Source: Pyrobaculum calidifontis JCM 11548
Lineage (GTDB): Archaea; Thermoproteota; Thermoprotei; Thermoproteales; Thermoproteaceae
DNA: 32,000 nt
Direction of reading: 5' to 3'
Assembly (NCBI RefSeq): GCF_000015805.1
Contig: NC_009073.1
Coordinates: 1,770,001 to 1,802,000 of the forward strand
The translations under genes and the position numbers were made by a program. Positions 9,877-24,799 of the stretch are shown here, piece by piece. Numbering within the stretch: position 1 is the stretch's first letter; each line of letters begins with the position of its first letter. The notes beneath the pieces are model-generated. The model worked only from the letters and a program-made list of their open reading frames with translations. It was not told where the DNA came from and did no database searches.

Positions 9877-9893
9877 GGTTACACCCCTTAACC
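9877..9893. promoter_or_regulatory. candidate operator GGTTAC-ACCCC-TTAACC between divergent nor and narJ
   Basis: 11 of 12 match to GGTTAA-N5-TTAACC. The dyad centre at 9885 is 43 nt from the nor ATG (9842) and 39 nt from the narJ GTG (9924). It is flanked by T-rich CGCTTTTCTC (9863-9872, minus strand) and TATTTAAAAA (9899-9908, plus strand) TATA-like elements. Confidence 0.65.
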
Positions 9894-9923
9894 CCACTAT
9901 TTAAAAACTGTCCAAATAGGGCC

Positions 9924-10463
9924 GTGGACCCCGTACAAGCAATCTACATCACAATAGCGAGGGCCCTGGACCAGCCCGAGAAGGCGCTTGAGGCAAGGCG
10001 CGACGTGGAGGAACTGGCCCACGCCCTGGGGCTGGAGGAGGTGGCCCAGTTCTTCAAAGAGGCTGAGGGCATAGATGTGGAAGACCACCGCATATCTCTC
10101 TTCGAACTTGCGCCCAAGTGCCCCCCATACGCCGGGTATTACGCGCTTGGGGAAGACAGTAGGGAGAGGGGGTGGTACATGCACCAAATCCTGACCTATT
10201 ACAGAGCCTTTGGCTTCGACATGGACGTGAGGCGGGAGCTCCCGGACTACCTCCCCGCCATGTTAGAATTCCTCGCCGTGTCAAGGAACGTGGACGACCT
10301 AGGCAGAAAGCTGATGAGGAAGGACTTCTACAGGAGGTTTATAAAGCCCTGGCTAGACAAGTTTGTCCAATGTCTAGAAAAACAAAAGAGCCCCTACAGA
10401 CACCTGGCCCACGCCCTTGTAAAACTGTTAAAAGAAGATTTTGAGACTACTGAGACTACTTGA
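9924..10463 (+). CDS. narJ: nitrate reductase assembly chaperone (NarJ/TorD family)
   Basis: 179 aa. The central region ELAPKCPPYAGYYALGE...YYRAFGF...LPDYLPAMLEFLA resembles NarJ/TorD-family redox enzyme maturation proteins. GTG start with TATTTAAAAA 16-25 nt upstream. Confidence 0.8.
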   Translation: MDPVQAIYITIARALDQPEKALEARRDVEELAHALGLEEVAQFFKEAEGIDVEDHRISLFELAPKCPPYAGYYALGEDSRERGWYMHQILTYYRAFGFDMDVRRELPDYLPAMLEFLAVSRNVDDLGRKLMRKDFYRRFIKPWLDKFVQCLEKQKSPYRHLAHALVKLLKEDFETTETT

Positions 10464-10713
10464 ACTCTTCCCTCGCCAGGTAGTACAAGTACGCCATCAC
10501 TGCCACTATAGACAAGGCGAATACGCCGGTCCAAACGGCGCTCTGCAACATCCACGTCCTTTCCACTGGGTCCTCTCTTAGTGCCGTTAAATCCCTTGGG
10601 CTATTGGCAAATGTATTGTACACACCGTTAATGTATGTCAAGCCGTAGTTTAACAAGACCATTCCAATGGCCACAATAAGCGCCAATATGAGTAACGCAG
10701 TGGCCCTATTCAT
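10456..10713 (-). CDS. small membrane protein, last gene of the bc1-like operon
   Basis: ORF 10456..10764. The ATG at 10713 (MNRATALLILALIVAIG...) overlaps the upstream stop (10706-10708) in a coupled arrangement. Two hydrophobic helices. Confidence 0.5.
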   Translation of the reverse strand: MNRATALLILALIVAIGMVLLNYGLTYINGVYNTFANSPRDLTALREDPVERTWMLQSAVWTGVFALSIVAVMAYLYYLAREEFK

Positions 10714-11041
10714 GGCCCTCCCTCTTAGAAATCTCCATGTAATACTGCACGGCCATAATCCCAATTATAAACGACGCCGCGGCTAACTGGCCAGCGGCCA
10801 CACGCTGGTAGAGGACTCCCTTCTCCACCCAGGCGGGGTCGGGCGGGAAAGAGGCCGCGGAGTAGTAGGCCATAATTATGTTGGCGGTATAGGCAAAGAG
10901 TGCAAGCAGAGCAAGCACAGATATTAGCCCCACTGCGGTAGACGCGGCCCTGCTAACGTAGCCTAGCGCGAACACCAACACGGCCGCCGGCACGGCGATG
11001 CCAGCCGTCAGCCAGGCAAGGACTGTGGGCTCCATACTCAC
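10706..11041 (-). CDS. small membrane protein (3 TM), bc1-like operon
   Basis: 111 aa with three hydrophobic segments. 4-nt overlap with the cytochrome b stop. Confidence 0.55.
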   Translation of the reverse strand: MSMEPTVLAWLTAGIAVPAAVLVFALGYVSRAASTAVGLISVLALLALFAYTANIIMAYYSAASFPPDPAWVEKGVLYQRVAAGQLAAASFIIGIMAVQYYMEISKREGHE

Positions 11042-12270
11042 CCAACGGGGGTAGGAGTGCCTACGTATGGCACAGCGCTGTCAGGGGGCACCACAATCCT
11101 TGTAAACGGCGTAATCTGCTTAGGTATGTCGACTATGAAGCCCAGCACTGTGCCATAGCCAATCACGGCCATGTACAATATGGCGATCAATATCCAAACC
11201 CACCGCTCAGACACCGACACGCCGCCCCTTCTGTCGAGCAGAGGCACAACTAGCGCAAAGAGCACCAATAGGAATGGGAGACCCACAGATATGAAGGGAT
11301 CAATCATTTTCACATAGGTGTAGTACCACATGACAGGCCAAGGCGGCCGCACACCCGTCGGCACTCCTTGGCCAGGCGCCCAGGGCTCCAGCAGCGGCTG
11401 GGGGAAGAAGGCCACCAGCAACAATAGGAATGATATCTGTAGAAACACTTGGCCAACCATAAGCGCAAATCTGTGGGGGTAGAAGGGCTCTTTGTCCTCC
11501 ACCATCTTCTGCCTAAGCGCCTCGTTTTTCACTGGGGGAGGCGACACGCCGCCGTATAAAATGCCCTGGATCTTCAAGCCCAAGAGGATCAAGATCACCG
11601 CTGGCACTATGAGGATGTGTAAGACGTATACCATCTTGACCACCTCGTTTGTGGGATAGTTAGAGCCCAGTAGGGCAATTATGGTACCCCCCACGGGGAT
11701 GCCCAAGTAGTCGAAGTAGCGGAAGAGGTTAAGCCCAATCATGAGCGCCAAAATGCCGTCGAGGTGGAGCGGGAGTATATAGCCCAGCACCGCCTGGTTT
11801 ATGGTGAGGACACCCAACAAGACGCCGAGGAACCACAAGGCGCCCCCTCCCCTCCTCTTATACGCGCCTAGGACAAACTTTGCGAAGAAGTGCACAAGCG
11901 CCGCCATTATCATGAGGTAAGCCGCCCAGAGGTGGAACTGCCGCAGGATAAAGCCGAACGGGGTGAGATACACAATCTTGTACACGCTTAGATATGACCC
12001 TGTGGCGCTCACTTCGCCGCCTTCTACGCCGTAGAGCTGATCCCACTTCATTATGGCAGAGGCAGGTATCTGCCGCACATCGAGCGAGGGGGTGTACAAG
12101 AGGGCTAGGAAGAAGCCGGTGAGGGCCAGGAGGAAGAAGCTCACAGCGGCTACGTCGCCGAACCAGTAGAGCGGGTTTATGTTGGAGTAGCGGGGCACCG
12201 GGTGTTCTAAGAACTCCTTTAAGTGGAAGCGCTCCAGGATCAACTCCCAGAGCTTAACCAGCGCCCTCAT
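11038..12270 (-). CDS. cytochrome b (bc1/b6f-type quinol oxidising subunit)
   Basis: 410 aa, polytopic. Helix with His-x13-His spacing (FHLWAAYLMIMAALVHFF), typical of the bis-heme cytochrome b helix B. Immediately downstream of, and overlapping, the Rieske gene. Confidence 0.8.
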   Translation of the reverse strand: MRALVKLWELILERFHLKEFLEHPVPRYSNINPLYWFGDVAAVSFFLLALTGFFLALLYTPSLDVRQIPASAIMKWDQLYGVEGGEVSATGSYLSVYKIVYLTPFGFILRQFHLWAAYLMIMAALVHFFAKFVLGAYKRRGGGALWFLGVLLGVLTINQAVLGYILPLHLDGILALMIGLNLFRYFDYLGIPVGGTIIALLGSNYPTNEVVKMVYVLHILIVPAVILILLGLKIQGILYGGVSPPPVKNEALRQKMVEDKEPFYPHRFALMVGQVFLQISFLLLLVAFFPQPLLEPWAPGQGVPTGVRPPWPVMWYYTYVKMIDPFISVGLPFLLVLFALVVPLLDRRGGVSVSERWVWILIAILYMAVIGYGTVLGFIVDIPKQITPFTRIVVPPDSAVPYVGTPTPVG

Positions 12271-12821
12271 ATGTGCGCCACGAGGGGATACACTACTCCA
12301 TCTTTCACCGCCACCACGATAGACCTAAGCGATCTAACAGCTGGGCCGCCAGATACGTACATTTCGAGAAATCTGGCGTTGCCGCACCCCTCCGGCTTGT
12401 TGCACACGGTGAACACGCTTCCGTGACATGGACAATTAAAGCCTGTGAGATACTTACCCCCCATGACGTTGAGAGGACAGCCGAAGTGTGTACAAATTGC
12501 CACGTAGGCCGCTGGGTACTCTTTTCCGTCTGTTGCTCTGATTAATCCGAAGACGGCTGGGATAGCCATGCTGTTTACGCGTATCAGCTTAAACACGGGG
12601 CCGTTGCGCAACTCGTCCAAGGGGACGCCGAGCTCCTTCGGGCAAGAATTCACATCTTTGCATATCTCCACTTTTACGGCGCCGGTGGTCTCCGGCTTTA
12701 CGTATCCAGCCCTTCCATCAATAATTGACGCGACTAGGGGAGTCGCCAACATGCCCGCGCCCACTGCTGCCGTGGTGCCAATGAGGATCTTTATAGTGTT
12801 CCGTCTATTCTCGTCGACCAT
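12267..12821 (-). CDS. Rieske [2Fe-2S] protein with Tat signal
   Basis: 184 aa. Twin-arginine N-terminus (ENRRNTIKILIGTTAAVGAG). Rieske boxes CTHFGC and CPCHGS. Confidence 0.9.
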   Translation of the reverse strand: MVDENRRNTIKILIGTTAAVGAGMLATPLVASIIDGRAGYVKPETTGAVKVEICKDVNSCPKELGVPLDELRNGPVFKLIRVNSMAIPAVFGLIRATDGKEYPAAYVAICTHFGCPLNVMGGKYLTGFNCPCHGSVFTVCNKPEGCGNARFLEMYVSGGPAVRSLRSIVVAVKDGVVYPLVAHI

Positions 12822-12822
12822 A

Positions 12823-13401
12823 TTACTTCGAGGCGGCCATTTTCAGCATTTCTACTAGGGCTGGGACGTATTCCTTGTCCCATTGGTCGCCGTAGAGGGA
12901 CTTGTAGGCGGCTATCTGCGCAGTCATTGTTGTTGCGTCTCGTGGGGGCTGGGTGAGGAATTTGGCCAACAGCTCCGCAGCCTTGGCAGGGTCTGAGGCG
13001 GGGTTTTGAAGGCCGTTGTCCCGGTAGAATTTCCCAAGCCACTGTGTGTCAGAGAAGAGGGCCTTACTCAAGTCCGGCCCCACATTCCCCCCAGACACGC
13101 CAAGAGACTTAATCGAGTGACAAGCCACACACCCCACATCCTTGAAATAGGAAAGGCCCTTGTTGGCCAACTCGGCGTTGTAAGAAACAGACGGCCCACC
13201 CGCAGGCGGGCCCGATGTCTGAGTCTGCTGAGTCTGAGTAGCAGTCTGCGGGGGCTGTGCGGTAGCGGCTGGTGGAGGTGCTCCAAGGCCTAGTAGTGAG
13301 AATGCGGTGGCAACGGCTATTATCACCGCGCTTAGTACTATTAACAGAGAGATCCAAGGTAACCCCTTGGACGGAGGAGTTGCCAGCCGAGTTGTTAGCA
13401 T
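12823..13401 (-). CDS. membrane-anchored mono-heme cytochrome c (paralog 1)
   Basis: Single CVACH heme-binding motif. N-terminal TM anchor followed by a Pro/Thr/Gln-rich linker. The C-terminus (EYVPALVEMLKMAASK) is nearly identical to that of ORF 17741..18388. The track start 13431 lies inside a repeat arm. ATG 13401 sits 20-27 nt downstream of TTTAAAAA (13421-13428, minus strand), so I prefer 13401. Confidence 0.8.
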   Translation of the reverse strand: MLTTRLATPPSKGLPWISLLIVLSAVIIAVATAFSLLGLGAPPPAATAQPPQTATQTQQTQTSGPPAGGPSVSYNAELANKGLSYFKDVGCVACHSIKSLGVSGGNVGPDLSKALFSDTQWLGKFYRDNGLQNPASDPAKAAELLAKFLTQPPRDATTMTAQIAAYKSLYGDQWDKEYVPALVEMLKMAASK

Positions 13402-13410
13402 AAAGCACCG

Positions 13411-13493
13411 AATTGAACCGTTTTTAAACATTGTAACCGAAAAAGTTTTTGACTATTACATTTTCGCCTTTAACGTTTAAAAACGGTTCAATT
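13411..13493. repeat. perfect 19-bp inverted repeat (AATTGAACCGTTTTTAAAC / GTTTAAAAACGGTTCAATT) with 45-nt A/T-rich spacer
   Basis: Arms at 13411-13429 and 13475-13493, read directly. The right arm abuts the ccmF stop codon. The left arm contains the TATA-like box of the cytochrome c/Rieske/cytochrome b operon. Confidence 0.9.
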
Positions 13494-15649
13494 TACGCCC
13501 TATTCTGTCTCTGGTCTTTGGCCAGTAGGTAGGCTGAGAGAGCTATGACGGCGGCTGAGAGGGCGTAGAGCTCGGAGATGAGGGGGACTGGCTTCACGGC
13601 GGCTACCCAAGCCCCGTGGGCCTTGGCCAAGTAAAGCGCCACTTGAGTGAGGTTTCTAGCGCCCACAGACGCCAAAACTGCATACGCGGCGCCTGCGTTG
13701 CATTGGCTCAGCAGCTCTCTGACGTAGGCGGCCGTGGCGGCGTCCCACATGGCCCCTCCCACGGTCTCCATGGCGGGCGCGAGGACTACGTTGTAGCCGA
13801 CGAGGGGCTTGTACACATCGGCCACCCCCACCACCAGCCCGCCCACGCCCTTGAGCCAGCCCGACGCGTCGTAGCGCGCCGTAAACACGGCGTCGGCCCC
13901 GTCCACGTAGACGCGGCCGCGGAAGTCCACGCCCCTCGGTAACACGTTGTCGCCGCCACCGCACTCCAAAAATCTGCGGACGGCGCCTGGGTTGACCGAC
14001 AGCGCCTCGACGAGGTCTAGGGGGGCGGGGAAGACTACGGCGGTGCCGTTCCTCTCCACTTCCACCACGGGGACGGCGCCGACCCGGCCCAGCTCCCTCC
14101 CGCCGCTCCACACTACCACATACTTTACCCCGGCCAAGTCCACTACCGTGTAGTTCAGCCCGCTCAAGGAGAAGACGCCACCGACGGCCTTGACATAGGC
14201 CGTGTAGTTGGGCAGAGCTGGCAACGCGGCCGTGGGAGGCACCTCCACCGCGACGGAGTCGACGGCGGCCGTTACCTCCAGAGCCAGCTCGGCGGGGTAC
14301 GGCCAGCTCCACAGAGTGACGTAGCGCCCGCCTGGCTCCACCGGCGTGAGTTTGTAGTAGGCCTGGCTGTAGGAGAAGGGCCCGCTCACGGCTATAGCCG
14401 CCACCAGCGCGAAGACCACGGCGTGTAAGGCCCTGTGCGCCGCCGAGTGCTGGCTTCTGGCAGCGAAGTACACTGACGCCGCCGCGCCGCCAACCAGGAG
14501 GAAGAGGAGGAAGTTTGTGGACCACGGGCTCTCAAAGGCTGGCCTATACCACGCCGCCAGCGCGGCGGCGGCCGCTGGCCAGAGGGCGTAGATGAGGAGC
14601 GCGGAGCGTTGCCTGGAGTAGTAGAGGGAGGAGAGGGCGAGTCCGCCGTAGACGGCCAGGGCGAGCGGCGCCACAAAGAGCGACACGAAGGCGTCGCCGG
14701 AGGGTGGCTGGATGGAGGCGCCGAGCAGGGCCGAGTAGAGGGCTGGGAAGGCCACCGTTGCGTATATAAAAACGCCGGCCCCGGCCATGCCCAAGGCGGT
14801 TGCCGCCAGCGCCGGGTCCCTGGGGATGCCTTTGGAGATCTTGGCCAGTCCCCACAGCGTGAGGGCCAGCGAGGCGGCTAGGAGCACCTGGGGCGTGGGG
14901 GTGGAGCCCACGAAGCTGTGCAACGCGGAGAAGCCCCCCTGGTTTACCGCCACGGCGCCCAGGAGGACGCCCGCCGTAGCGATGCGCCCCCCGTCGTTTT
15001 TTAAGTGTAGCGCCGCCGTGGCCGTGAGCCAGACGGCCAGTAGAGCGTTTTCCACGGGGTCCCACGCCCAGTAGCCGCTCCAGCCGAAGGTCTGGTAGCT
15101 CCATACGGCCCCCAAGAAGAGCCCTAGGGATAGCGACAGCCACCCCCACTTAAAAGCCCCGTGGGACCTCGCGGCGGCCCCCGCGAGGAGGAGGCCGTAG
15201 CCCACCAGCACGGCCACGGGGTGGGGCACTGCCCACACGCTCCTCAGCAGGGGGTTTAACCCCATGCCGGAGTGGGGGTAGTAGCCGGGGATTAGCTGGG
15301 GCACTGTCTCAAAGGGCCTTTCAGCGGCGGCATATGCCAACAAGAGGGCCGCCGCGGCGTGGGCGGCCCTGCTCCGCAGACCTCCCCACACAAGCGCCGT
15401 GGCCATCACGAAGACTGCGCCGGGGATAGAGGCCAAGGCGGCGGCCGCCTTCTCAAGAGGAGGCATGCCCCGCGCCGCGTTTATGTACACGACGACTACG
15501 TCAAACCCATCCGCGAAGAATAGGGCGAAGTGGTAGAGGGCCAGGGCCGTGGTGGCCGCCGCGGCGGGGACCGCCAGCCTCCTTGAAAACGCCGCGGAGA
15601 AGTTCAAGGCGGCGGCCGCCGTGAGTAGGACTAGGTAGAGTATGTCCAT
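13493..15649 (-). CDS. ccmF: cytochrome c maturation heme lyase/handling protein CcmF
   Basis: 718 aa, polytopic. WWD-type heme-handling motif with the following conserved His (GYWAWDPVENALLAVWLTATAALH). A large extracytoplasmic C-terminal region and a final TM helix. Confidence 0.85.
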   Translation of the reverse strand: MDILYLVLLTAAAALNFSAAFSRRLAVPAAAATTALALYHFALFFADGFDVVVVYINAARGMPPLEKAAAALASIPGAVFVMATALVWGGLRSRAAHAAAALLLAYAAAERPFETVPQLIPGYYPHSGMGLNPLLRSVWAVPHPVAVLVGYGLLLAGAAARSHGAFKWGWLSLSLGLFLGAVWSYQTFGWSGYWAWDPVENALLAVWLTATAALHLKNDGGRIATAGVLLGAVAVNQGGFSALHSFVGSTPTPQVLLAASLALTLWGLAKISKGIPRDPALAATALGMAGAGVFIYATVAFPALYSALLGASIQPPSGDAFVSLFVAPLALAVYGGLALSSLYYSRQRSALLIYALWPAAAAALAAWYRPAFESPWSTNFLLFLLVGGAAASVYFAARSQHSAAHRALHAVVFALVAAIAVSGPFSYSQAYYKLTPVEPGGRYVTLWSWPYPAELALEVTAAVDSVAVEVPPTAALPALPNYTAYVKAVGGVFSLSGLNYTVVDLAGVKYVVVWSGGRELGRVGAVPVVEVERNGTAVVFPAPLDLVEALSVNPGAVRRFLECGGGDNVLPRGVDFRGRVYVDGADAVFTARYDASGWLKGVGGLVVGVADVYKPLVGYNVVLAPAMETVGGAMWDAATAAYVRELLSQCNAGAAYAVLASVGARNLTQVALYLAKAHGAWVAAVKPVPLISELYALSAAVIALSAYLLAKDQRQNRA

Positions 15650-15970
15650 TTATACGAGGAAGGCGGCGAGTGCCGCCAGGACTGCCAGCTCGGCGGCTTC
15701 AAAGAGAGAGTAGGCGCGGCCGTATGCCGCGTAGCGGCTGAGCGCGCCTGTGAAGTAGAGGGGGACGCCCGCCAAGTGGATTAACACCATTGTCCACACT
15801 AGGGGGGCCAGGGGGGTGGAGAGGGTCAAGGCCCATAGGTAGAAGGCCGCCTCGTAGAGGGCTATGCCCTTCGCGTAAAGGCCTCCGGGGTACCTGCCCC
15901 GTCTCGCGTTGTAGGCGGTCCAGGCGTGTTTGTAGAACATTGGGAGGAAGAGGGCCAGCCTATAGTCCAT
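15650..15970 (-). CDS. small membrane protein (3 TM), unknown function
   Basis: 106 aa and hydrophobic. Its stop abuts the ccmF start (15649), and its ATG overlaps the hemerythrin gene 3' end by 11 nt. Confidence 0.45.
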   Translation of the reverse strand: MDYRLALFLPMFYKHAWTAYNARRGRYPGGLYAKGIALYEAAFYLWALTLSTPLAPLVWTMVLIHLAGVPLYFTGALSRYAAYGRAYSLFEAAELAVLAALAAFLV

Positions 15971-16499
15971 ACTTTTTGGCCACTCTGTCCAACTCGGCGA
16001 TCCACCTCTCGTGGTCGTTCTCCCGCTCTATCTGTTCCACGGTCTTGGAGGAGGACGCCTCGTGGGCCGTGGACTCTATCATTGGGAAAAGGACGTTGTT
16101 CTCCTTGTCTATGTGTTGGGAGAGGTGGTCTATGTATATGCGCGCGTAGTCGGCCAAGTCCCGTAGGGCCTCCTTGTCGCCGGACTTCCACGCGTGGTAC
16201 AGCTCCTCCATGACTCTAGCCAAGTAGCGCCCCACGCCGTGTTCACACACCATGACCTGTATTGGGCCGCCGGTCAGGGGGAACCCCGCCCGGTTTGCCC
16301 CCTGGAAGAGCACGTACTCCTCCACGCCGTGGTGACACGCGTCAACGAAGCGCTGGGCGAACTGCACCAAGGTGTACACGTCGTCGGGGTCTGGGCTGGG
16401 GGAAGAGAGGGCCTTGTCTAAAACGGCGAGGGCTCTGAGGATGTGGTCGTGGTGTTCCCTGAGGACAGAAGTCACGTACTTCACTCTCACCTTGCCCAT
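15960..16499 (-). CDS. hemerythrin-like (HHE cation-binding) di-iron domain protein, NorA/RIC-like candidate
   Basis: 179 aa. His/Glu-rich helical pattern (REHHDHI..., ACHHGVEE, CEHGVGR, IDHLSQHIDKEN) typical of hemerythrin-like domains. Own TATA-like CTTATATAG (16518-16526, minus strand) 19-27 nt upstream of the ATG. Confidence 0.75.
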   Translation of the reverse strand: MGKVRVKYVTSVLREHHDHILRALAVLDKALSSPSPDPDDVYTLVQFAQRFVDACHHGVEEYVLFQGANRAGFPLTGGPIQVMVCEHGVGRYLARVMEELYHAWKSGDKEALRDLADYARIYIDHLSQHIDKENNVLFPMIESTAHEASSSKTVEQIERENDHERWIAELDRVAKKYGL

Positions 16500-16517
16500 G
16501 GACCCGCCCCGCCTCCT

Positions 16518-17240
16518 CTATATAAGCCTTGACCCCGCCTTATATGCGGCGATTAAGAGGGCAGTGAAGAGGAGGCTACTCGCCAAAATCCTCCTCCCCA
16601 TGCGCCTTATCTCGTCCACAGTGGAGACCTTCTTGTGGCGGAGGTAGTTGTCGACAAGCAGGTACGTGGGCTCTGCCAGAGCCACCGCAGTGAGGGGGTT
16701 GAGGGCGGCCACGTAGGCGGCTGAGGGTAGCCAGAGGAGGAGGGGGGCCGTCGGGTCTAGAGACCTAAAGGCCAGGCGGGACTCCACGTAGAGGGCAAAG
16801 GAGGTGAAGTACGACACGTAGGCCGCGTAGACGGCGTATTCGCCGGGGGCCGGAGGCCCCAAGAGCGCCCTCATGGGCATCACTAGGGAGGAGTAGAGGG
16901 CTAGCCCGGCCACGTAGCCTACGGGAGTCCTCACCCGGCCGCCGGCCGCGGCGAGGAGGACGGCCGCGGCTAGGGCGAGGAGGGAGGCGAGGACGGGCGC
17001 CGGCATGTTGAATAAGGCGGGGATGTAGGGCAGGGCGTTTGCAAGGAGGAGAGGCGCCGAGACGGCCCTCCGCGAGGCTTGTTCAAAAAGCGCGCTAAAG
17101 GTGGTCAAGTGCACGAAGAACGCAAAAACGGCGAGGAGCGCCCTCCACCAGTCGGAGGGGAGGCCAAGGGCCAGAGCCGCGGCGAGGTCTGTTGTCAAGA
17201 CTCCCACGATGGTCCACTCCCGGGGGATCAGCCTGGGCAT
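16518..17240 (-). CDS. integral membrane protein, unknown function
   Basis: 240 aa with about 7 hydrophobic segments. No motif I can name with confidence. Confidence 0.5.
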   Translation of the reverse strand: MPRLIPREWTIVGVLTTDLAAALALGLPSDWWRALLAVFAFFVHLTTFSALFEQASRRAVSAPLLLANALPYIPALFNMPAPVLASLLALAAAVLLAAAGGRVRTPVGYVAGLALYSSLVMPMRALLGPPAPGEYAVYAAYVSYFTSFALYVESRLAFRSLDPTAPLLLWLPSAAYVAALNPLTAVALAEPTYLLVDNYLRHKKVSTVDEIRRMGRRILASSLLFTALLIAAYKAGSRLI

Positions 17241-17262
17241 GGCCCCTTGCTGTGCCCCAGTT

Positions 17263-17709
17263 TTAAACTTCGCCGCCCCGTAGCTCCCAGCCGCGTCTCA
17301 GCGCCCTCTTCGCCAACTCCACGAGGTACTCCGCGGCGTGGACAGGAGTGAGGAAGTTTCTCCCAACCACTTTAACCAAGGCGCTTAGGTGCGTGGAGTA
17401 GTAGGGACAGCGCAGGCAGTCGTTGTCGCAGTCGTCGGGCACATAGGCGCAGTTCCCCTCTCCAACTACCACGAGAGGCCTGGCCAAGACCCTTATGTGC
17501 CCATCCACGGCCTCTATGGGTATGTAGACCCCCGGCCCGTCGAAGCCCAGCCCCCTCAGCCTATTTATCCTCCTGTACACGGCGCTTAGAGAAAGGCCTG
17601 TCACAAAGCTTATCTGCTTAGCCCCAAGACCCTTGGCGAGTAGACACAACACGGTGACATCCTCCTTCTCCAGTGAAAAAGAGGTCCGGGGGAGAAATTT
17701 AAATCTCAT
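17263..17709 (-). CDS. HTH transcription regulator with C-terminal four-cysteine cluster (CX6CX3CX2C)
   Basis: N-terminal LuxR/sigma-70 region-4-like HTH (EKEDVTVLCLLAKGLGAKQISFVTGLSLSAVYRRINRL). C-terminal CAYVPDDCDNDCLRCP. The track start (TTG 17730) is unlikely. ATG 17709 (MRFKF...) lies 22-29 nt downstream of TATATAAC (17731-17738, minus strand). Confidence 0.65.
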   Translation of the reverse strand: MRFKFLPRTSFSLEKEDVTVLCLLAKGLGAKQISFVTGLSLSAVYRRINRLRGLGFDGPGVYIPIEAVDGHIRVLARPLVVVGEGNCAYVPDDCDNDCLRCPYYSTHLSALVKVVGRNFLTPVHAAEYLVELAKRALRRGWELRGGEV

Positions 17710-17740
17710 ACTAAGTAGTAAAAAATTCAAGTTATATACG

Positions 17741-18343
17741 TCACTTTCCGGCTACTGCCATTTTGAACATTTCCACTAGTGCTGGGACATATTCGCTGGC
17801 CCACTTGTCGCCGTACTGCTTTTTGAAGGCCTCTATCTGTACACTCATGGTGGGGGCTAGCTCCTTGTCTCCCTCTGTGAGGAATTTAGCTATTAGCTGG
17901 GCAGCCTTGTTTGGATCTGCCGCCGGGTTTGTGAGGCCGTTTTTCTCAAAGTACTTCATCATGATGGGGCCGCCCGCTGTCCCCTTCTCTATTCCGACGT
18001 TGCCCAAGAGGGTTTGACTTAGGTCGGGGCCTATGTTGCCCCCCACCTCGATGCCCACGGCCTTCACCGTGTGGCAGGCGTTGCAGGCAAGCTGTTTGAA
18101 GTATTCAACGCCCTTCTTGGCCAAGTCGGCGTTGTACTGCACTTTGACAGAAGGGGCTGGCGCAGTGGTCGTGGCCGGGGTGGAGGTTTGGCCAGCTGTG
18201 ACGGTGGTGGGGGACTCGGTTATCGTTGTGGCAGTTGTCCTAGTCTCGGTGACTGTAGCCGGCGGAGGGCTGTAGGTGAACGCCAGCGCGCCGATGATTA
18301 TGCCTACGATTGCAATTATCACATATATGGCCTCCTTTGCCAT
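17741..18343 (-). CDS. membrane-anchored mono-heme cytochrome c (paralog 2)
   Basis: CNACH motif, N-terminal TM anchor and Thr-rich linker. The C-terminal domain is collinear with the 12823..13401 product. ATG 18343 (MAKEAIYVII...) is preferred over the track start 18388 from the TATA-like CTTTAACA (18361-18368, minus strand) and the box spacing. Confidence 0.8.
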   Translation of the reverse strand: MAKEAIYVIIAIVGIIIGALAFTYSPPPATVTETRTTATTITESPTTVTAGQTSTPATTTAPAPSVKVQYNADLAKKGVEYFKQLACNACHTVKAVGIEVGGNIGPDLSQTLLGNVGIEKGTAGGPIMMKYFEKNGLTNPAADPNKAAQLIAKFLTEGDKELAPTMSVQIEAFKKQYGDKWASEYVPALVEMFKMAVAGK

Positions 18344-18376
18344 GTCTCCCCATACGCGGGTGTTAAAGAGGGTTGT

Positions 18377-18393
18377 GGTTAAACACATTAACC
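18377..18393. promoter_or_regulatory. candidate operator GGTTAA-ACACA-TTAACC between divergent cytochrome c and nirS-like genes
   Basis: Perfect 6-5-6 palindrome; the arms extend to 7 bp (18376-18394). The centre at 18385 is 42 nt from the cytochrome c ATG (18343) and 43 nt from the nirS-like ATG (18428). TATA-like GAATAAATC lies at 18399-18407. Confidence 0.7.
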
Positions 18394-18427
18394 ATAATGA
18401 ATAAATCGGACGGGCGTAGTCACTGCC

Positions 18428-20053
18428 ATGTCGCAGTCCCAGGAGAAGGGTGCTGGGAGACGCGACGTGTTAAAGGCCTTTGCCGCCGCTGGCCTGGGCT
18501 TCGCTGTTGGTAGCTGGGCCCTTGCCTTGAGCCGCGGCGCGCCTGTGCAGAAGGTGGTGTACGAGAAGGCTGAGGAGGTGAGGGTGAAGCCCGTGGTTCA
18601 AGTACAGCAACAAACCGCGGCGCCGCAGGTGTCCGCGCCTCCCCACGACGCTTTTCAGAAGAGGGGGCTCGCCTACTTGAGCGCCGATTATATACAAAGC
18701 ACTCTGAGGGTGTTGGTGCCGGAGGACCAGCTCCCCAGCAAGCCCACCGCCTACAACATCAACGACTTGGACTGGATAGCCATACTGATTGAGAGCAGAT
18801 ACCACGAGCCGGGCGTGGAGATGGTGGGGGCCTACACCTTCCTCGATATGAAGAATTTTAAGGTGCTGAAGCGGGTGAAAAACGCGGGGGATAGAGTCCA
18901 CGTGGTGAGGTTCGGCCGCGAGGAGTGGCCTGAGCACAAGAGGAGGTTTGCCCTCGGGATGTCAAGGGACTGCTGGCTCTCCAAGATCGACCTCTACTCC
19001 ATGCAGGTGGTTAGGCAGATTAAAATCGGCGTTGACTGCAGAAGCGCGGCGTACGACAAGGACGGGAAGTACGTAATAGCTGGCTCCAAGGACCCGGGCC
19101 ACGTGGTAATCCTTGACGCGGAGACCTTCAAGGTGTTGAAGGTTATCCCATTCCTTGGCGTGAGCAAGTTCTTCCCCACGCCCATGATGGGCCGGCAGGG
19201 CGCCATATTGACAACCGACTTGGGCTACTGGCTAGTCAACGTAAAAGACGCCGAGATGGTGCTTGTGATAGACTACAGAGACCCCTCCTTCCCCATTGTA
19301 CACGTCTTCACGAGCTATGACACTAACAAGAAGGGGAGAAGCGTCAAAGTCCAAATCGGCGACAAGACCTACGAGACCACAGGCATTGGCAAAAGCCCCC
19401 ACGAGCTCAACAAGTTGGACAAAGTGGGGAGGTATGTGGCTGTCACAGGGCAGGAGAGTAGCACAATTACAATACTCGACGTAGAGAACTTCGAGGTTGT
19501 CAACGTTATCCCATGTGGAAAGAAGCCTCACCCAGGCCCCGGCACCCTAGTCCCCAACAAGTACTTCCTAACCAACGCCATAGCCGAGGGCAAAATCACA
19601 GTGATAAACCTACAAACGATGGACCTAGAGAAGTACATAACTTACCCGCAGGAGTTCCCCGCCGACACAGGCGGCGGCCTCTACTCCACGCCGCCGCTCC
19701 CTGATGGCACAATACCCAAGGGCTTGGCGTGGTTTGACACCACGTTTAATATAAACAAGGGCATATTCGCCGTAGATATATACATGCTTGACGTGGCGAC
19801 GCGGCCGCCGAAGCCCGCGATATTTGCCGCAAACAAGCCGGGCAAGTGGGCCATGCACCCCGGCTATACCCCAGACGGGAAGTATGTAATAAGCGCGCTG
19901 GAGCGCACCGACACGGTGTACAAGGTAGACGCCGAGACTGGGGAAATTGTCGGCACCATAAACCTGAAAAACGTAGAGCCAGTCCAGCTACTAGAGGAGC
20001 CAAGCCCAACGGGCATATTCCCAGCTTGGCGCATAAAGGCGCCCTGGTTCTAA
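18428..20053 (+). CDS. nirS: NirS-family heme-d1 beta-propeller protein (nitrite reductase d1 domain) with Tat signal and no heme-c domain
   Basis: 541 aa. Twin-arginine signal (GAGRRDVLKAFAAAGLGFAVG). Segments RVHVVR, IKIGVDCRS, KYVIAG, HVVILDAETF, VNVKDAEMVLVIDY and KKPHPGPG parallel the d1 domain of cd1 nitrite reductases as I remember them. There is no CXXCH anywhere in the ORF. Confidence 0.75.
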   Translation: MSQSQEKGAGRRDVLKAFAAAGLGFAVGSWALALSRGAPVQKVVYEKAEEVRVKPVVQVQQQTAAPQVSAPPHDAFQKRGLAYLSADYIQSTLRVLVPEDQLPSKPTAYNINDLDWIAILIESRYHEPGVEMVGAYTFLDMKNFKVLKRVKNAGDRVHVVRFGREEWPEHKRRFALGMSRDCWLSKIDLYSMQVVRQIKIGVDCRSAAYDKDGKYVIAGSKDPGHVVILDAETFKVLKVIPFLGVSKFFPTPMMGRQGAILTTDLGYWLVNVKDAEMVLVIDYRDPSFPIVHVFTSYDTNKKGRSVKVQIGDKTYETTGIGKSPHELNKLDKVGRYVAVTGQESSTITILDVENFEVVNVIPCGKKPHPGPGTLVPNKYFLTNAIAEGKITVINLQTMDLEKYITYPQEFPADTGGGLYSTPPLPDGTIPKGLAWFDTTFNINKGIFAVDIYMLDVATRPPKPAIFAANKPGKWAMHPGYTPDGKYVISALERTDTVYKVDAETGEIVGTINLKNVEPVQLLEEPSPTGIFPAWRIKAPWF

Positions 20054-20068
20054 AAGGCTTTACTTTTT

Positions 20069-20524
20069 CTAAATAAGAAGGGCCGCCTTTTCAAGCGCCT
20101 TTTTGAAGACCTTGTACACGGCCACCTTTGTCACCCCCAGCTCTTTGGCCACCTCTCCCAAGCCCCTCCCCTCTGCCACTCGGCGCAGGACAGCTCTCTG
20201 CCTCTCTGTGAGAACCAGCCTCCTGTGAGACACTGCCTCCACTTTGACGACATGTGGGTTGGCTTTCAGGAGCTTTTTCACAGCCGGTGTGGCGCCTACC
20301 ACTACGACGAGTCGCCTGTTTTCCAATTCTACGCTTTTTACATACCCCACGGAGAGGAGTTTGTAGAGTATACACTCTTCACATTTAGACACTATGTGGA
20401 CGACTCCTCTAGGCGTTGCCACAACGTGGACGAGCTTGCCGTTTTGTATCTGAAAGCCCAGGTGGGCGTAGGCGTCGGCCGGCGTCTGTGGGCACGGCTT
20501 TAAAACTACGCGAAGAAATTTCAC
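20069..20524 (-). CDS. small transcription regulator, N-terminal Cys/His domain plus C-terminal HTH (paralog R1)
   Basis: 151 aa with a GTG start. KPCP(9-12), AHLGF(20-24), VHVV(32-35), KCEEC(47-51). C-terminal LTERQRAVLRRVAEGRGLGEVAKELGVTKVAVYKVFKKALEKA resembles HTH_10/LuxR/sigma-70 region-4 type. Collinear with ORFs 21516..21974 and 24274..24705. Confidence 0.7.
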   Translation of the reverse strand: MKFLRVVLKPCPQTPADAYAHLGFQIQNGKLVHVVATPRGVVHIVSKCEECILYKLLSVGYVKSVELENRRLVVVVGATPAVKKLLKANPHVVKVEAVSHRRLVLTERQRAVLRRVAEGRGLGEVAKELGVTKVAVYKVFKKALEKAALLI

Positions 20525-20624: not shown

Positions 20625-20649
20625 TTCTGGTTAACTAAATTAACCAGAA
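20625..20649. promoter_or_regulatory. candidate operator TTCTGGTTAA-CTAAA-TTAACCAGAA upstream of the heme O synthase gene
   Basis: Perfect 10-bp arms with core GGTTAA-N5-TTAACC at 20629-20645. The centre at 20637 is 43 nt upstream of the in-frame GTG at 20680. TATA-like GCTTTTAGG lies at 20651-20659. Confidence 0.7.
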
Positions 20650-20679
20650 TGCTTTTAGGCGTTGCTTCGTGTAAGTGTC

Positions 20680-21519
20680 GTGGTGAAGGCGTATCTGACT
20701 TTGTTAAAGCCGAGGGTCATTTGGCTTTTAATTTTGGCCAGCGCAGCTGGGTACGTATACGCCGCGGGGGGCGTGGATTGGGGCAAGCTGTCTTCTCTTC
20801 TCTTGGCGGCTCTCTTGGCCACGGGCGGCTCTGCCGCGTTTAACCACTACTGGGAGCGTGACATAGACGCGGCAATGCGGCGCACGTCTCGTAGGCCTCT
20901 TCCAATGGGCCTAATTAAGCCGGGCAGGGCTTTGGCCTTTTCTCTGGCGCTCTCCGCGGCCGGCGTTGCCCTGGGCTTCCTCCTGCTGGGCCCGTTGCCG
21001 GGGGCCTTCGTGGCCTTGGGCTGGTTCTTCTACGCCGTGGTGTACACCATGTGGCTTAAGAGGAGGAGCTGGCTAAACGTCTTGGCAGGGGGATTCGCCG
21101 GGAACGCGGTTTTTCTAGGCGGATATGCGCTGGGAAAGGGCCACATAGACCTCGCCGCAGTGTTAATGTCCTTTGCCGTGTATCTCTGGATCCCGGCGCA
21201 CATATGGTCTCTGGCCTACAAGTACAAAGAGGACTACAGAAGGGCTGGCGTCCCCATGCTTCCTGTCGTAATTGGCGAGCAGAAGGCTGTCGTCGTGATA
21301 TCTGTCTTGAACGTGGCAAGTGTCGCCTATATAGCACTTTTGACGTTGCTCTTTTTGCCCTCCCTCTTGTCCTTGTTGCTAGTCGCCGTGGGCGCGGGGG
21401 CGGCCGTTGCGTCGAGTATATACGCGCTGGTGAAGAGGACTGAGGGAGCCATGTGGAAGATGTATAAATCCTCGGCCCCCGTCTTGACGATATTCTTGGT
21501 CGCAGTAATGCTGGCCTAG
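20680..21519 (+). CDS. ctaB: protoheme IX farnesyltransferase (heme O synthase, UbiA family)
   Basis: Motif [21 protein letters not shown] is typical of CtaB/CyoE; the protein is polytopic. The track start is TTG 20662. GTG 20680 or 20683 ([13 protein letters not shown]...) fits the TATA and box spacing better. Confidence 0.88.
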
Positions 21520-21974
21520 ACTAGGAGGGCCACCTTTTTCAAAGCTCTCCTAATTAGCTTAAGCGCCGCCACTCTGCTTACGCCCAGCTCTTTGGCCAAG
21601 TCGCCGGCCCCCTTGCCCATTGCCAAGTGGAGGAGCGCGTCTCGCTGTTTTTCAGTGAGCACTAGGTTCTTGTAGGACACCTCCTCTACCTTTACCACTT
21701 GGGGCGAGTTTCTCAAGACCCTTTTAACAGCGCCGTTGCCAGTCACCACGATAGTGATACGCCCCTCGCCCAGCTTGACTCCGCCGAAGATGTACCCGCT
21801 TGACGCCAGTTGGTAGAAGACACACTCGTCGCATTTGGCTACTACCCTCTCCACGCCCCGAGGGGTGGCCACAAGGTGTATTACATGCCCATTGCGCATG
21901 TGAAAGCCTAGATGGGCATAGGCGTCGCGGGGGACCTTTGGGCATGTACGTAAAACAACTCTAAGAAACTGCAT
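21516..21974 (-). CDS. small transcription regulator, N-terminal Cys/His domain plus C-terminal HTH (paralog R2)
   Basis: 152 aa. [68 protein letters not shown]. Clearly homologous to R1 along its full length. 4-nt convergent overlap with ctaB. Confidence 0.7.
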
Positions 21975-22091
21975 AGTAGTAAGTAGTTTTAACTTAATAA
22001 GTCTTGTTACACTATGCTATTTTACATATAGTAACATTTTTATATTATTTATCACACATAAATACATAGAGATGCATCATCGTATTTTCAG

Positions 22092-23060
22092 TTACTGCGG
22101 CGGGTTGAGGGGGACTGGCTTCGACTTGGCTGACCGAAGCGCCGCGTAACCCGCGATCCCCACTACTAACACGGCGGCTGGCGCCGTTAGGCCGACGTTT
22201 CGAAGGGCGTATGCGGCCAGCGACGCGGCTAGTAGCTCGTACTTGTAGCTTGGCGCTTCTCTGTAGAGGATTGAGGGGAGGAAGTAGGGCACGCAGAGGG
22301 TGGACATTATGACGGCGAAGGCCATGTAGGCGAAGTGGTGCCCCAGAGGGGCCAGGGCTATGGCTACTCTAAAGAAGAGGGACCCCACGCCGTATGCGTC
22401 GCGGGGCTTGGGAGGAGCCGTTAGGGTTAGGGCAATGGAGGGGAATATGAAGGACCACAGATGCCCCCACAGTGACGCGGCCCAGGCTAGGGCGTAGAGG
22501 AGGGCCAGGGTAGCCGCCGCCTTCAGCCTAAAACGCGCCTTTGCCCTAGAGACGTCTACGCGGTAGAGAAGAGTGTAGACGGAGGCCAGTGGGAAAGATA
22601 GCGCCGCCATTAGGGGGGTGGGGGAGAGCGGGAGAAGGGCGAGGCCTGGTATGGTGATTAAGTTGGGGTAAAAGGTGGGCTTTTTTCCAAGCCCCTTGGC
22701 GTATAGGGCGATGTACACGGCGGAGAAGGGGGCGTAGGCGGCGTAGCCGTAGAGCTGGGAGGCGGCTGTGCCAAGGATGAAGAGGGCTGTGAGTAGCCAC
22801 GTGGCCCACCTAGCCGGCGCCGCGTTGATGAAGCCTGGTAGCTGGATGTACATTACGGCGAAGTAGAACGCCAGCAGGCCCGACACCATGAGGGACATAT
22901 GCCACGCCACCTGCCCCACGGCGGCGAGGAGGGCGCCCCCGGCCAAGAAAAAGGCCGAAAGAAAGAGGGCGAGCCTGGAGGCCCACACCACGTCTACCAC
23001 GGCCTTGTAAAAAGCCAAGGGCTCAGACCTCCCCACTGGCAACCAAGGCGAGAGGCCCAT
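22092..23060 (-). CDS. polytopic membrane protein, divergent NnrS-like candidate
   Basis: 322 aa, hydrophobic throughout. The segment WHMSLMVSGLLAFYFAVMYIQLPGF loosely parallels the NnrS H-x-x-x-M-x-x-G-F region. Starts 9 nt after the upstream NnrS-like gene. Confidence 0.4.
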   Translation of the reverse strand: MGLSPWLPVGRSEPLAFYKAVVDVVWASRLALFLSAFFLAGGALLAAVGQVAWHMSLMVSGLLAFYFAVMYIQLPGFINAAPARWATWLLTALFILGTAASQLYGYAAYAPFSAVYIALYAKGLGKKPTFYPNLITIPGLALLPLSPTPLMAALSFPLASVYTLLYRVDVSRAKARFRLKAAATLALLYALAWAASLWGHLWSFIFPSIALTLTAPPKPRDAYGVGSLFFRVAIALAPLGHHFAYMAFAVIMSTLCVPYFLPSILYREAPSYKYELLAASLAAYALRNVGLTAPAAVLVVGIAGYAALRSAKSKPVPLNPPQ

Positions 23061-23069
23061 TGCGGCCGC

Positions 23070-24182
23070 TTAAAGCCCTCTTAGTCTGCGTTGCATGTTT
23101 AATAGGAATGCCACGATGGCAACACCCACGGCGGGGCCTGTGAGCGCGGCCAAGGGAGGCGTCGGCCATGCGGGGTAGAGGGCCCTGAGGAGGAGCCCCA
23201 CGTTTAACAGCGCAGAAAGGACAGCCTCGGCGACTGGGAAGCCCCTGCGCCTTATTGACACAGTAACCCTCTTGACTTGGCCAGCCAGCATGTCCATAAG
23301 CACCACGTCTACTCCAAACACTATGTTAAAAATGAAGCCCAGCGCGGCGGCGTGCACCGCCACGTCGTACCAAAGCCCGGCGCCCCCTGTAGCCGTCAGA
23401 ACTATGCCGGAGAGGGCCAGCCAGAAATACGCCGTGTATATCTGGACAAGGGAGTACCGCACCTCTACCCCCCTCAAGAGGCCGGAGGAGGCCAGCGAGA
23501 GGGCTGAGGCTGTGAGAATAAGCACGCCAGCTGCCCTCGGCGCCCCGGCGGCCCATGTGAAAAACGCCGCGGCTATGAGGGCAAAGGCAACGGCGTTGCC
23601 CCACCCCCTGGCGGGCTTTTTCCCAGTCACTAGAGAGATGTCTCTGGCCATAACGGCGAAGATGGTGCCTATGGGGAATACCAATGCGGCGACCGCGGCG
23701 TTGAAAAGGCCAAGTAAGCCGAAAATCGGCACTACGGCGGACACAGCCAGCGCCGCCGCCAAGAGGTAGTTGTAGAGCACAGGCCTGAGGCCTATCCGCG
23801 AGGGCGCTAGGTAGACTTTGCCCGCGTACGCCAGGAGAATCAGCAAAGCCACGAAAGAGGAGAGGTAGGCCGCGGCAAAGGCCCCCGCCAAGGTAAAGGC
23901 CACGGTCAACCAGAGCATGGCGGCGAAAGGAGCCATGTATGCAAGGGGTGCCGCCCTGCCGCTCCACTCCAGCGAGAGCACGTGGAGAACCTCGTTCCCA
24001 ATAAGCGCTAGGAAGAAGCCGAAAATCATGAGAAGCCAGTGCCTATCCAGCCCCAGCGGAATAGGCGAAGGAAGCCCCGCCCAGCTCCACAATATGGAAA
24101 TCCCCGTGAGACCCCCCAACACCAGCGACAAAAGCCCAGACGCCATCACAGCCACAAAACGGGGAAAGAGCGTTGTCGACAT
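23070..24182 (-). CDS. NnrS-like heme/copper membrane protein candidate
   Basis: 370 aa, about 10-12 TM. DRHWLLMIFGFFLALIGNEVLHVLSLEWSGR parallels the NnrS signature as I recall it (HAHEMLFGF...NWTGR). A second conserved His sits in VAVHAAALGF. TATA-like TTTTTATGTT (24201-24210, minus strand) lies 19-28 nt upstream of the ATG. Confidence 0.5.
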   Translation of the reverse strand: MSTTLFPRFVAVMASGLLSLVLGGLTGISILWSWAGLPSPIPLGLDRHWLLMIFGFFLALIGNEVLHVLSLEWSGRAAPLAYMAPFAAMLWLTVAFTLAGAFAAAYLSSFVALLILLAYAGKVYLAPSRIGLRPVLYNYLLAAALAVSAVVPIFGLLGLFNAAVAALVFPIGTIFAVMARDISLVTGKKPARGWGNAVAFALIAAAFFTWAAGAPRAAGVLILTASALSLASSGLLRGVEVRYSLVQIYTAYFWLALSGIVLTATGGAGLWYDVAVHAAALGFIFNIVFGVDVVLMDMLAGQVKRVTVSIRRRGFPVAEAVLSALLNVGLLLRALYPAWPTPPLAALTGPAVGVAIVAFLLNMQRRLRGL

Positions 24183-24273
24183 AGAGCACTTCCCGTTGTC
24201 AACATAAAAACATGATGAACCCTAAGGCGGCCATCGCGCATCCCGATGCCAAGCCTTAAGCACTGCGAGAGGA

Positions 24274-24705
24274 TCACTCTCCCAGTAGAGCCAGTAATTT
24301 TCTCACAGCTCTCTTCACAAGCTTACTTGTAGCCGCCTTAGAAACTCCCAGCTTCTCAGCCGCGCCTTTGATAGAGCGTGAAGAAAACACACGCAAAGCC
24401 TCCACTTCCCTTTCGGTCAAGTTAAATCTGTAAGGGGCGTAACAAGGCCCATAAGCCGACTGCCCCCTCACCACTATGGCAAATATAAAATATCCATCCA
24501 CGGTAAGAATAGATTTGATATAAGACTTAGATACAAGCTTCGCGATGGAGCAGTCCTTCCTGCATACAACTTTTCTGAGCCTCCCGTTCCAAACTAGGTG
24601 AGCCAAGTCGCCGTTCTCCACTCTGAATCCAACATGTTTAAACTCATCCCCAGATTGTGCCAAAAAATGAGGGCATGGCTTATGTCTAATTATACAGATA
24701 TACAT
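24274..24705 (-). CDS. small transcription regulator, N-terminal Cys/His domain plus C-terminal HTH (paralog R3, most divergent)
   Basis: 143 aa. HKPCP, KHVGF, AHLV, CRKDC (CX3C), then LTEREVEALRVFSSRSIKGAAEKLGVSKAATSKLVKRAVRKL. Same order and spacing of features as R1 and R2. TATA-like TTTTTATAAG (24721-24730, minus strand). Confidence 0.65.
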   Translation of the reverse strand: MYICIIRHKPCPHFLAQSGDEFKHVGFRVENGDLAHLVWNGRLRKVVCRKDCSIAKLVSKSYIKSILTVDGYFIFAIVVRGQSAYGPCYAPYRFNLTEREVEALRVFSSRSIKGAAEKLGVSKAATSKLVKRAVRKLLALLGE

Positions 24706-24740
24706 GAGTCTTTTTTTTCACTTATAAAAAGCTTTTCCGC

Positions 24741-24781
24741 CTAGAACGCCACGGCGGCTCTGTACAGACTCGCCGTTCTAG
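24741..24781. repeat. GC-rich imperfect palindrome: CTAGAAC...GTTCTAG outer arms and GGCGGCTCTGTACAGACTCGCC inner dyad
   Basis: Outer arms at 24741-24747 and 24775-24781. The inner 22-nt dyad (24753-24774) has 2 mismatches and is centred on TGTACA. It lies between the R3 promoter and the nosZ box, abutting the latter. Confidence 0.6.
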
Positions 24782-24782
24782 A

Positions 24783-24799
24783 GGTTAACGAGGTTAACC
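24783..24799. promoter_or_regulatory. candidate operator GGTTAA-CGAGG-TTAACC upstream of nosZ
   Basis: Perfect 6-5-6 palindrome, which also reads as the tandem repeat GAGGTTAAC x2. The centre at 24791 is 42 nt upstream of the nosZ ATG (24833). The A/T-rich AAAAGACTTAT at 24800-24810 is the presumptive TATA. Confidence 0.7.

Follow-up and report, generated by a model that had tools for sequence, protein, structure and literature searches.

In bacteria, the nir, nor and nos promoters share two-fold symmetric boxes (TTGA-N6-TCAA) bound by dimeric sensor-regulators of the FNR/DNR/NnrR/FixK2 kind, and nar is controlled separately. At nosR of B. diazoefficiens the axis of the FixK2 box lies ~40.5 bp upstream of the transcription start site (TSS), and deletion of the box abolishes expression (PMC5582078). 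Here we describe a likewise symmetric element, GGTTAA-N5-TTAACC, in denitrification promoters of the archaeon Pyrobaculum calidifontis JCM 11548, within a 32,000-nt stretch of contig NC_009073.1 (positions 1,770,001–1,802,000; hereafter the window). The Pyrobaculum axis is similarly placed, 42–44 nt before the start codon of presumably leaderless genes. The sequence differs from that of CRP/FNR boxes, and the promoter machinery is that of TBP, TFB, the TFB-recognition element (BRE) and TATA box rather than sigma-70. No cNMP-binding or CRP-type helix-turn-helix (HTH) domain was found in the 30 open reading frames of the denitrification island that were scanned. The likeness to CRP/FNR boxes is functional and convergent, with no homology.

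In the reviews we found, Pyrobaculum denitrification is covered for its enzymes only, and the only experimentally supported archaeal cis-element we found is haloarchaeal. It is a semi-palindrome, CGAAYATDKTYG, common to the nirK, nor and nosZ promoters of Haloferax mediterranei, where nar behaves differently; mutating it lowers nos and nor promoter activity (PMC10062603). That element is 12 bp long, contiguous and 66–79 nt upstream of the ATG in a euryarchaeote, whereas the Pyrobaculum box is a 6-5-6 palindrome at 42–44 nt in a crenarchaeote; the CGAAYATDKTYG motif was not found in the window promoter sequences read. Archaeal upstream activating sites have been characterised for Bat at bop (Halobacterium), Ptr2 (Methanocaldococcus) and TFB-RF1 (Pyrococcus); they lie directly upstream of a weak BRE/TATA and are thought to act by recruiting TBP and TFB. 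Their sequences and factors (Lrp-type, PAS/GAF-HTH_10 and others) are unrelated to those described here, and none of these systems concerns crenarchaeal denitrification. The Pyrobaculum box belongs to neither the CRP/FNR nor the haloarchaeal family; it adds one more example to a known class of elements and does not found a category of its own.

No description of the GGTTAA-N5-TTAACC box was found in the searchable full-text literature; earlier publication is possible, Cozen et al. 2009 not being among the texts covered. Regulation of crenarchaeal denitrification is essentially uncharacterised. We read the box, with a probability of roughly 55%, as the operator of a Thermoproteaceae denitrification regulon: a putative upstream activating site for a dimeric HTH regulator, likeliest of the type of R1 and R2, two small proteins encoded in the island. 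What the finding offers is a precise conserved operator, a target set (nirS, the cytochrome c operon, nor, nosZ and heme O synthase, not narG) and a shortlist of candidate sensors. It also makes directly testable how sensing of nitric oxide (NO) or anoxia is coupled to a TBP/TFB promoter in a hyperthermophilic archaeon.

Copies, enrichment and conservation of the palindrome

Scans with Pfam and NCBIfam profiles identified a complete denitrification island in the window. Its genes are EB_dh/narH/narG, qNor, narJ, Rieske/cytochrome b, a cytochrome c assembly protein, a hemerythrin (weakly YtfE/DnrN-like), a c-type cytochrome, nirS, heme O synthase, a Sec-type nosZ with nosL/D/F/Y and a major facilitator superfamily (MFS) transporter; its regulators are three small paralogues, R1, R2 and R3, plus orf148. 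The island is 97% coding and 3% intergenic. The four boxes and the candidate target genes are as follows:

9877–9893, no strand: Box 1, GGTTACaccccTTAACC, one mismatch, at the centre of the divergent nor/narJ promoter
18377–18393, no strand: Box 2, GGTTAAacacaTTAACC, exact, at the centre of the symmetric bidirectional cytochrome c/nirS promoter
20629–20645, no strand: Box 3, GGTTAActaaaTTAACC, exact, arms reaching 10 bp (20625–20649), 5' of heme O synthase
24783–24799, no strand: Box 4, GGTTAAcgaggTTAACC, exact, 5' of nosZ
7680–9842, minus strand: qNor (quinol nitric-oxide reductase), candidate target (Pfam COX1 and NorB_cytochrome_c-like; identity to the P. calidifontis qNor 100%)
13493–18343, minus strand: cytochrome c operon, candidate target (Pfam, NCBIfam), internal gene spacing 18–31 nt
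18428–20053, plus strand: nirS (cytochrome cd1 nitrite reductase), candidate target (Pfam Cytochrom_D1)
20680–21519, plus strand: heme O synthase, candidate target in P. calidifontis (NCBIfam TIGR01473, 238.7 bits against a cutoff of 210.3)
24833–30649, plus strand: nosZ-nosL-orf184-nosD-nosF-nosY, candidate target operon (Pfam)

A preliminary description, made from the window alone, had reported the three exact copies, the one-mismatch copy and the extended arms (TGGTTAA/TTAACCA at 18376–18394 and 10-bp arms at 20625–20649), and each was confirmed, the copies by a pattern search of the window and the arms by reading the sequence. The only further match with up to two mismatches was a two-mismatch site at 4237, within narG. 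The description had also held that the 6-5-6 arrangement is confined to promoters and far rarer than once by chance. Both claims stood: all four boxes are intergenic, intergenic DNA amounting to 925 bp between 657 and 31835, and three exact copies were found against 0.01 expected, with none of 100 shuffles yielding three or more.

For a broader count we scanned 203,101 bp of non-redundant DNA from 14 Thermoproteaceae loci, with first-order Markov simulations as background. Exact boxes numbered six, against zero expected, and one-mismatch boxes ten; together these 16 copies compare with 0.57 expected, a 28-fold excess. All 16 occupy the canonical phased promoter position. Coding DNA equally rich in the motif had been named as a refuting observation, and the scan found no coding copies with up to one mismatch. 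Two-mismatch copies were at background (seven against 6.2 expected), four of the seven being in coding sequence. A position matrix built from 18 independent sites refines the motif to GGTTAAY-N3-RTTAACC.

The box was also followed through orthologous promoters, a footprint that the preliminary description had proposed. It was found with 0–2 mismatches, equally far from the start codon and between diverged flanks, in orthologous nirS, nosZ and nor promoters; box-bearing genomes of Pyrobaculum and Thermoproteus number seven for nirS, six for nosZ and five for nor. In five further Pyrobaculum genomes, P. oguniense TE7 among them (NirS 80–88% identical), the nirS promoter carries it in the same place with 0–1 mismatch, as does the nirS operon promoter of a P. 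aerophilum-like contig (Box 2 orthologues: loci L001–L005 and L017). For nosZ, promoters of relatives with 89, 76, 65 and 64% NosZ identity have boxes with 0, 1, 1 and 2 mismatches, respectively, and a further metagenome-assembled genome (MAG) has an exact copy (Box 4 orthologues: L012, L013, L014, L015 and L018). In the 64% relative the spacing is 43 nt if translation starts at ATG 1081, which matches the N-terminus of the 89% relative. The nor promoters of P. ferrireducens, the P. aerophilum-like contig, a MAG and a Thermoproteus MAG have boxes with 2, 2, 1 and 1 mismatches (Box 1 orthologues: L016, L017, L018 and L019). Identity of qNor across this last set spans 56–83%, the Thermoproteus protein being at 56%. 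No alignment of the flanks was possible outside three parts: the palindrome, a short A-rich element and the TATA.

That the copies are a product of chance, or remnants of a repeated or mobile element, is conceivable insofar as AT-rich palindromes are commoner in intergenic DNA. The footprint contradicts this. Against the 0.01 copies expected per window stand a position kept across genera while the flanks diverged, and a shared sequence consisting of nothing but 17 bp, ANAA and TATA, with no longer repeat unit. We consider the probability of chance or mobile origin negligible.

Among the loci examined, no promoter box was found outside Thermoproteaceae, the nor promoters of Caldivirga and Pyrodictium having been checked. 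A single exact box within a Caldivirga coding gene is at background for that AT-richer genome.

Promoter anatomy and proposed mode of action

The preliminary description had given the distance from dyad centre to start codon for each gene, and recomputation returned identical values: 43 nt for nor, 39 for narJ, 42 for cytochrome c, 43 for nirS, 43 for heme O synthase (from GTG 20680) and 42 for nosZ. Independent gene calls on identical hot-spring metagenome contigs use the same start codons. Of 20 promoter readings, 17 gave 42–44 nt; the other three were narJ (39), one nor (47) and Thermoproteus nor (45). Alignment of the 20 readings brought out a BRE-like A-N-A-A and a weak TATA element next to the box:

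24800–24813, plus strand: BRE-like A-N-A-A and weak TATA of the nosZ promoter, aaaaGACTTATCcc
18394–18407, plus strand: the equivalent for nirS
20646–20659, plus strand: the equivalent for ubiA (heme O synthase)
9894–9907, plus strand: the equivalent for narJ
18363–18376, minus strand: the equivalent for cytochrome c
9863–9876, minus strand: the equivalent for nor

In the position matrix, A occurs at +3 and +4 after the box in 18/18 and 16/18 sites, respectively. The TATA-like element, often GCTTAT or GCTTTT, follows at +7 to +14. Box, ANAA and TATA-like element stand in that order, the box leaving the other two uncovered in 18/18 aligned sites. An A-N-A-A on the left side was seen only at boxes that also serve a divergent gene, so the element is directional, like a BRE, and lies outside the symmetric site. 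Box 2 has TATA-like elements 7–14 nt off on either side, and the order TATA-BRE-box-BRE-TATA makes the cytochrome c/nirS promoter symmetric, in P. calidifontis as in the orthologues. The box common to nor and its divergent partner has the same bidirectional layout. By virtue of this symmetry, a single bound dimer can serve both promoters of a divergent pair (cytochrome c/nirS; nor and its partner), and the compact symmetric promoter would be a model for bidirectional activation in archaea.

Could the palindrome instead act as a nucleic-acid structure, such as a DNA cruciform, an RNA hairpin or a terminator? The copy at 20625–20649 scores as terminator-like and folds with −8.3 kcal/mol as single-stranded DNA at 37 °C. 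The hairpins are weak, however, ranging from −1.8 to −8.3 kcal/mol at that temperature, Box 1 folds no better than its shuffles (z −0.46), the remaining boxes reach just −4.8 to −5.5 kcal/mol, and P. calidifontis, a hyperthermophile, lives at temperatures near 90 °C. The TATA lies downstream of the box, and the half-site sequence is conserved. Pairing is broken by each natural mismatch: in the 12 imperfect sites among the 18 aligned, mismatches are never compensated on the opposite arm, as expected of a protein site rather than a hairpin. Inner positions favour Y...R, which are not complementary within the site, and an Rfam search of the boxes gave no match. We rejected the hairpin, terminator and known-RNA readings for their weak folding, uncompensated mismatches and lack of an Rfam match, and a structural role of any kind is very improbable. 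Judged from its pattern of substitution, the box is most probably a double-stranded protein-binding site.

As to how such a site might work, a homodimeric HTH regulator would occupy the half-sites GGTTAAY and RTTAACC, whose centres are 11 bp, or one helical turn, apart, a distance that suits an HTH dimer bound to one face of the helix. The promoter-proximal half-site abuts the BRE-like A-N-A-A and the weak TATA, which puts the dyad at about −43 on these probably leaderless promoters; from there the bound factor would most likely help to recruit TFB and TBP, that is, activate. In this way nirS, the cytochrome c operon, nor, nosZ and, in P. calidifontis, heme O synthase could be induced together, with narG under separate control. 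The factor is most likely an R1/R2-type protein, which would sense NO or low oxygen through a metal or Fe-S centre in its N-terminal Cys3His domain. Motif, enrichment, conservation, spacing, promoter anatomy and gene linkage are read directly from the DNA; binding, activation, the identity of the factor and its signal are what we infer.

Activation is favoured because the box adjoins the presumed BRE from upstream and because box promoters have shorter A/T runs. The median run in the TATA zone was 6 in box promoters against 9 in box-less promoters of the same loci (Mann-Whitney p=0.002, by a crude measure).

Several points weigh against a box-bound activator of the R1/R2 type. TATA strength was compared by a rough measure, and strong TATA elements are present on the narJ side and on the Thermoproteus R side. 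The leaderless geometry is assumed from distances between TATA and start codon, and TSS, BRE and TATA alike are sequence-inferred. The box scan covered ~200 kb around denitrification genes. In Pyrodictium and Caldivirga an R-type gene stands beside nor, but the box is missing. Candidates include all three R paralogues and orf148, and the factor may also be encoded elsewhere. Finally, the proximal half-site lies at the upstream edge of the expected BRE, so that occlusion, and hence repression, is geometrically possible.

This last point leads to the repressor operator, in which a dimer at about −51 to −35 would keep TFB off the BRE under aerobic or non-inducing conditions until a signal releases it. 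Many characterised archaeal regulators are repressors, as are bacterial NO sensors of the NsrR type. The proximal half-site ends 0–1 nt before the BRE-like ANAA, and a steric clash with TFB is conceivable. On the other side, repressors in archaea usually bind across the TATA/BRE or the start site and not upstream of these, whereas this box leaves ANAA and TATA free at every aligned site. Rigid helical phasing with the TATA, weak TATA boxes and a single central site for two divergent promoters also fit activation better. We regard repression as unlikely.

Candidate regulators and a second repeat at nosZ

Four island genes encode candidate regulators, and a further repeat adjoins Box 4:

20069–20524, minus strand: R1, candidate box-binding regulator, Cys3His N-domain plus GerE/NarL-type HTH
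21516–21974, minus strand: R2, R1 paralogue (54% identity), passing the Pfam HTH_10 threshold
24274–24705, minus strand: R3, divergent paralogue (35% identity), transcribed divergently from nosZ
17263–17709, minus strand: orf148, alternative candidate regulator, HTH-like N-terminus and C-terminal C-X7-C-X3-C-X2-C
24741–24781, no strand: nosZ-specific inverted repeat, CTAGAACG-N25-CGTTCTAG, ending 1 nt before Box 4

The R family is small. A word-based homology search with R1 returned one close relative only, and an exhaustive profile search was used instead; of 1.84 billion cluster representatives, 35 matched at E<1e-10. Neither NosZ nor the Thermoproteus R protein gave a match when metagenomes were scanned with them. 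Within the family C11 and C51 are invariant and H33 and C48 nearly so, in the pattern C-X21-H-X14-C-X2-C; these Cys3His residues would suit a sensor built on an Fe-S or other metal centre. In a profile of 28 members, the C-terminal 45 residues match GerE (E 2.1e-5) and the NarL DNA-binding domain (E 2.4e-5). Fold matches of the C-domain to LuxR-type proteins (DesR, RcsB, TraR and SdiA) cover the same region as the GerE match. The AlphaFold model (mean confidence score, pLDDT, of 79.6, from a three-sequence alignment) has a beta-rich N-domain and a LuxR-type helical C-domain; a fold search of the N-domain against the PDB gave no match at E<=0.001. The R1, R2 and R3 genes have a canonical TATA and no phased box.

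Domains of the LuxR/GerE/NarL type bind inverted repeats as dimers, for example the 7-2-7 site of NarL. The R family shares their C-terminal HTH but is archaeal and has no receiver or autoinducer domain. R2 reaches 25.8 bits against the HTH_10 cutoff of 23.1, R1 and R3 falling slightly under it; HTH_10 is the haloarchaeal Bat-type HTH. NarO of Haloferax volcanii is reportedly a regulator that joins a cysteine-motif N-domain to an HTH. Its motif, known here by description only, is C-Xn-C-X-C-X7-C and differs from that of the R family. Even in H. mediterranei a NarO homologue has been reported as lacking (PMC10062603).

R-family genes stand beside denitrification clusters in all Pyrobaculum loci long enough to tell. 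In the Thermoproteus MAG, nor and an R gene (L019, 9454–9915) share one box-centred bidirectional promoter; gene calls for the 10 kb around nor include no other denitrification-related gene. In Pyrodictium delaneyi (CP013011) an R gene (L022, 9268–9777) is divergent from nor across a 223-bp spacer without a box. In Caldivirga maquilingensis (CP000852, L020) a hemerythrin and a 207-aa HTH_10 protein, the latter a distant R relative (hhalign probability 96.9%), are encoded 5' of nor; the nor promoter there (9936–9957) has another perfect palindrome, ATTATCTAA-N4-TTAGATAAT, ~54 nt before the ATG. Because both organisms pair an R-type gene with nor in the absence of the box, the link between R genes and box is an association within Thermoproteaceae only. 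The pattern suggests that R proteins are nor-linked regulators of crenarchaea, with an operator that depends on lineage. Its linkage to nor suggests NO as the signal. A published abstract is said to name a predicted NO-responsive regulator in P. aerophilum.

The box might be a true operator bound by orf148, or by a global regulator from outside the island, rather than by R1, R2 or R3. Homologues of orf148 lie in the cytochrome c/nirS operon (L002–L005) or beside narJ (L017), and the cysteine motif of orf148 would suit such a role, as would the box-less pairing of R-type genes with nor in Pyrodictium and Caldivirga. However, the Thermoproteus nor module has box and R gene, and no orf148 homologue was found within 10 kb of its nor. 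Moreover, orf148 has no significant match in Pfam, NCBIfam or PDB, HTH families included, whereas the R proteins carry a domain of a type known to bind palindromes as dimers. Recognition by a factor other than the R proteins is, in our estimate, rather unlikely; orf148 may be a second regulator of Fe-S type.

For the R proteins we propose, tentatively and at less than even odds, that the family comprises uncharacterised crenarchaeal gas or redox sensors. A Cys3His metal centre would react with NO (or O2), and a GerE-type dimer would bind the box and recruit TFB, with R1/R2 serving the box and R3 a CTAGAAC repeat. The arrangement would be an independent counterpart of class II activation by DNR/NnrR.

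The repeat in question is the second inverted repeat of the nosZ promoter. In the form CTAGAAC(G)-N25-27-(C)GTTCTAG it is conserved in three other loci (L012, 238–278; L013, 173–213; L015, 921–962), ending 1–2 nt before the box; it was not found in L018 or L014. In L015 a related TTAGAACGG...CCGTTCCA lies still further upstream. R3-type genes adjoin nosZ in L012, L013 and L015 and, with P. calidifontis, thus in all four repeat-bearing loci; for this reason the CTAGAAC repeat may be an R3-specific site, perhaps related to nitrous oxide (N2O) or copper.

Candidate target genes and neighbouring observations

The preliminary description had counted narJ and heme O synthase among the box-served genes along with nirS, the cytochrome c operon, nor and nosZ. 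The last four held up as consistent members across genomes; narJ is doubtful, and heme O synthase calls for a qualification. Against narJ are its spacing (39 nt here, 34 nt in L018), its canonical TATA and the P. aerophilum-like contig, where a box-less narJ is paired with narG.

For heme O synthase, a box was observed in P. calidifontis and otherwise only in a near-identical, and so uninformative, relative (L021); in L004 the ubiA promoter is AT-rich and no box was found in it. The gene itself lies within the denitrification cluster in every Pyrobaculum examined. It is directly 3' of nirS in P. oguniense (L005, 11621–12448) and directly 5' of nor in P. ferrireducens (L016, ~9090–9917). Its link to the cluster is real, and its wiring is species-specific. 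The nitric-oxide reductase of P. aerophilum reportedly has heme O-type cofactors, which would explain a heme O synthase in the gene set of the box.

The promoters described earlier as box-less proved so: narG, the bc1-like genes (orf202), R1, R2, R3, orf370 and the MFS transporter have no phased match, and the best matches 5' of them have 3–4 mismatches, the ubiA and nosZ boxes themselves aside. No box was found in the narG promoter of any of the three genomes examined. Between nor and narG, at 7643–7679 on the minus strand, a GGGG...CCCC hairpin followed by a T-run (aaaaaggggattcgtcggaaaaaccccgattttt) is terminator-like; it would set the box-driven nor apart from the box-less narG promoter.

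The cytochrome c operon comprises the c-type cytochrome (17741–18343), orf148, orf240, the hemerythrin/YtfE-like protein, orf106 and the cytochrome c assembly protein, and its transcription may continue into the Rieske/cytochrome b genes (10706–13431). Its first product, a 200-aa c-type cytochrome, is paralogous to orf202 (12823–13431), with ~51% identity over 130 residues (tblastn); orf202 heads the bc1-like genes, as its paralogue heads the box-driven operon. Several relatives of P. calidifontis likewise possess a Sec-type nosZ with nosL/D/F/Y. In P. ferrireducens (L016, 12250–18464), nosL-like and nosZ genes lie 3' of nor with no box of their own, and may be co-transcribed from the nor box promoter. 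Beyond Pyrobaculum, the proteins closest to NosZ include one from Caldiarchaeum subterraneum and some from MAGs labelled Thaumarchaeota.

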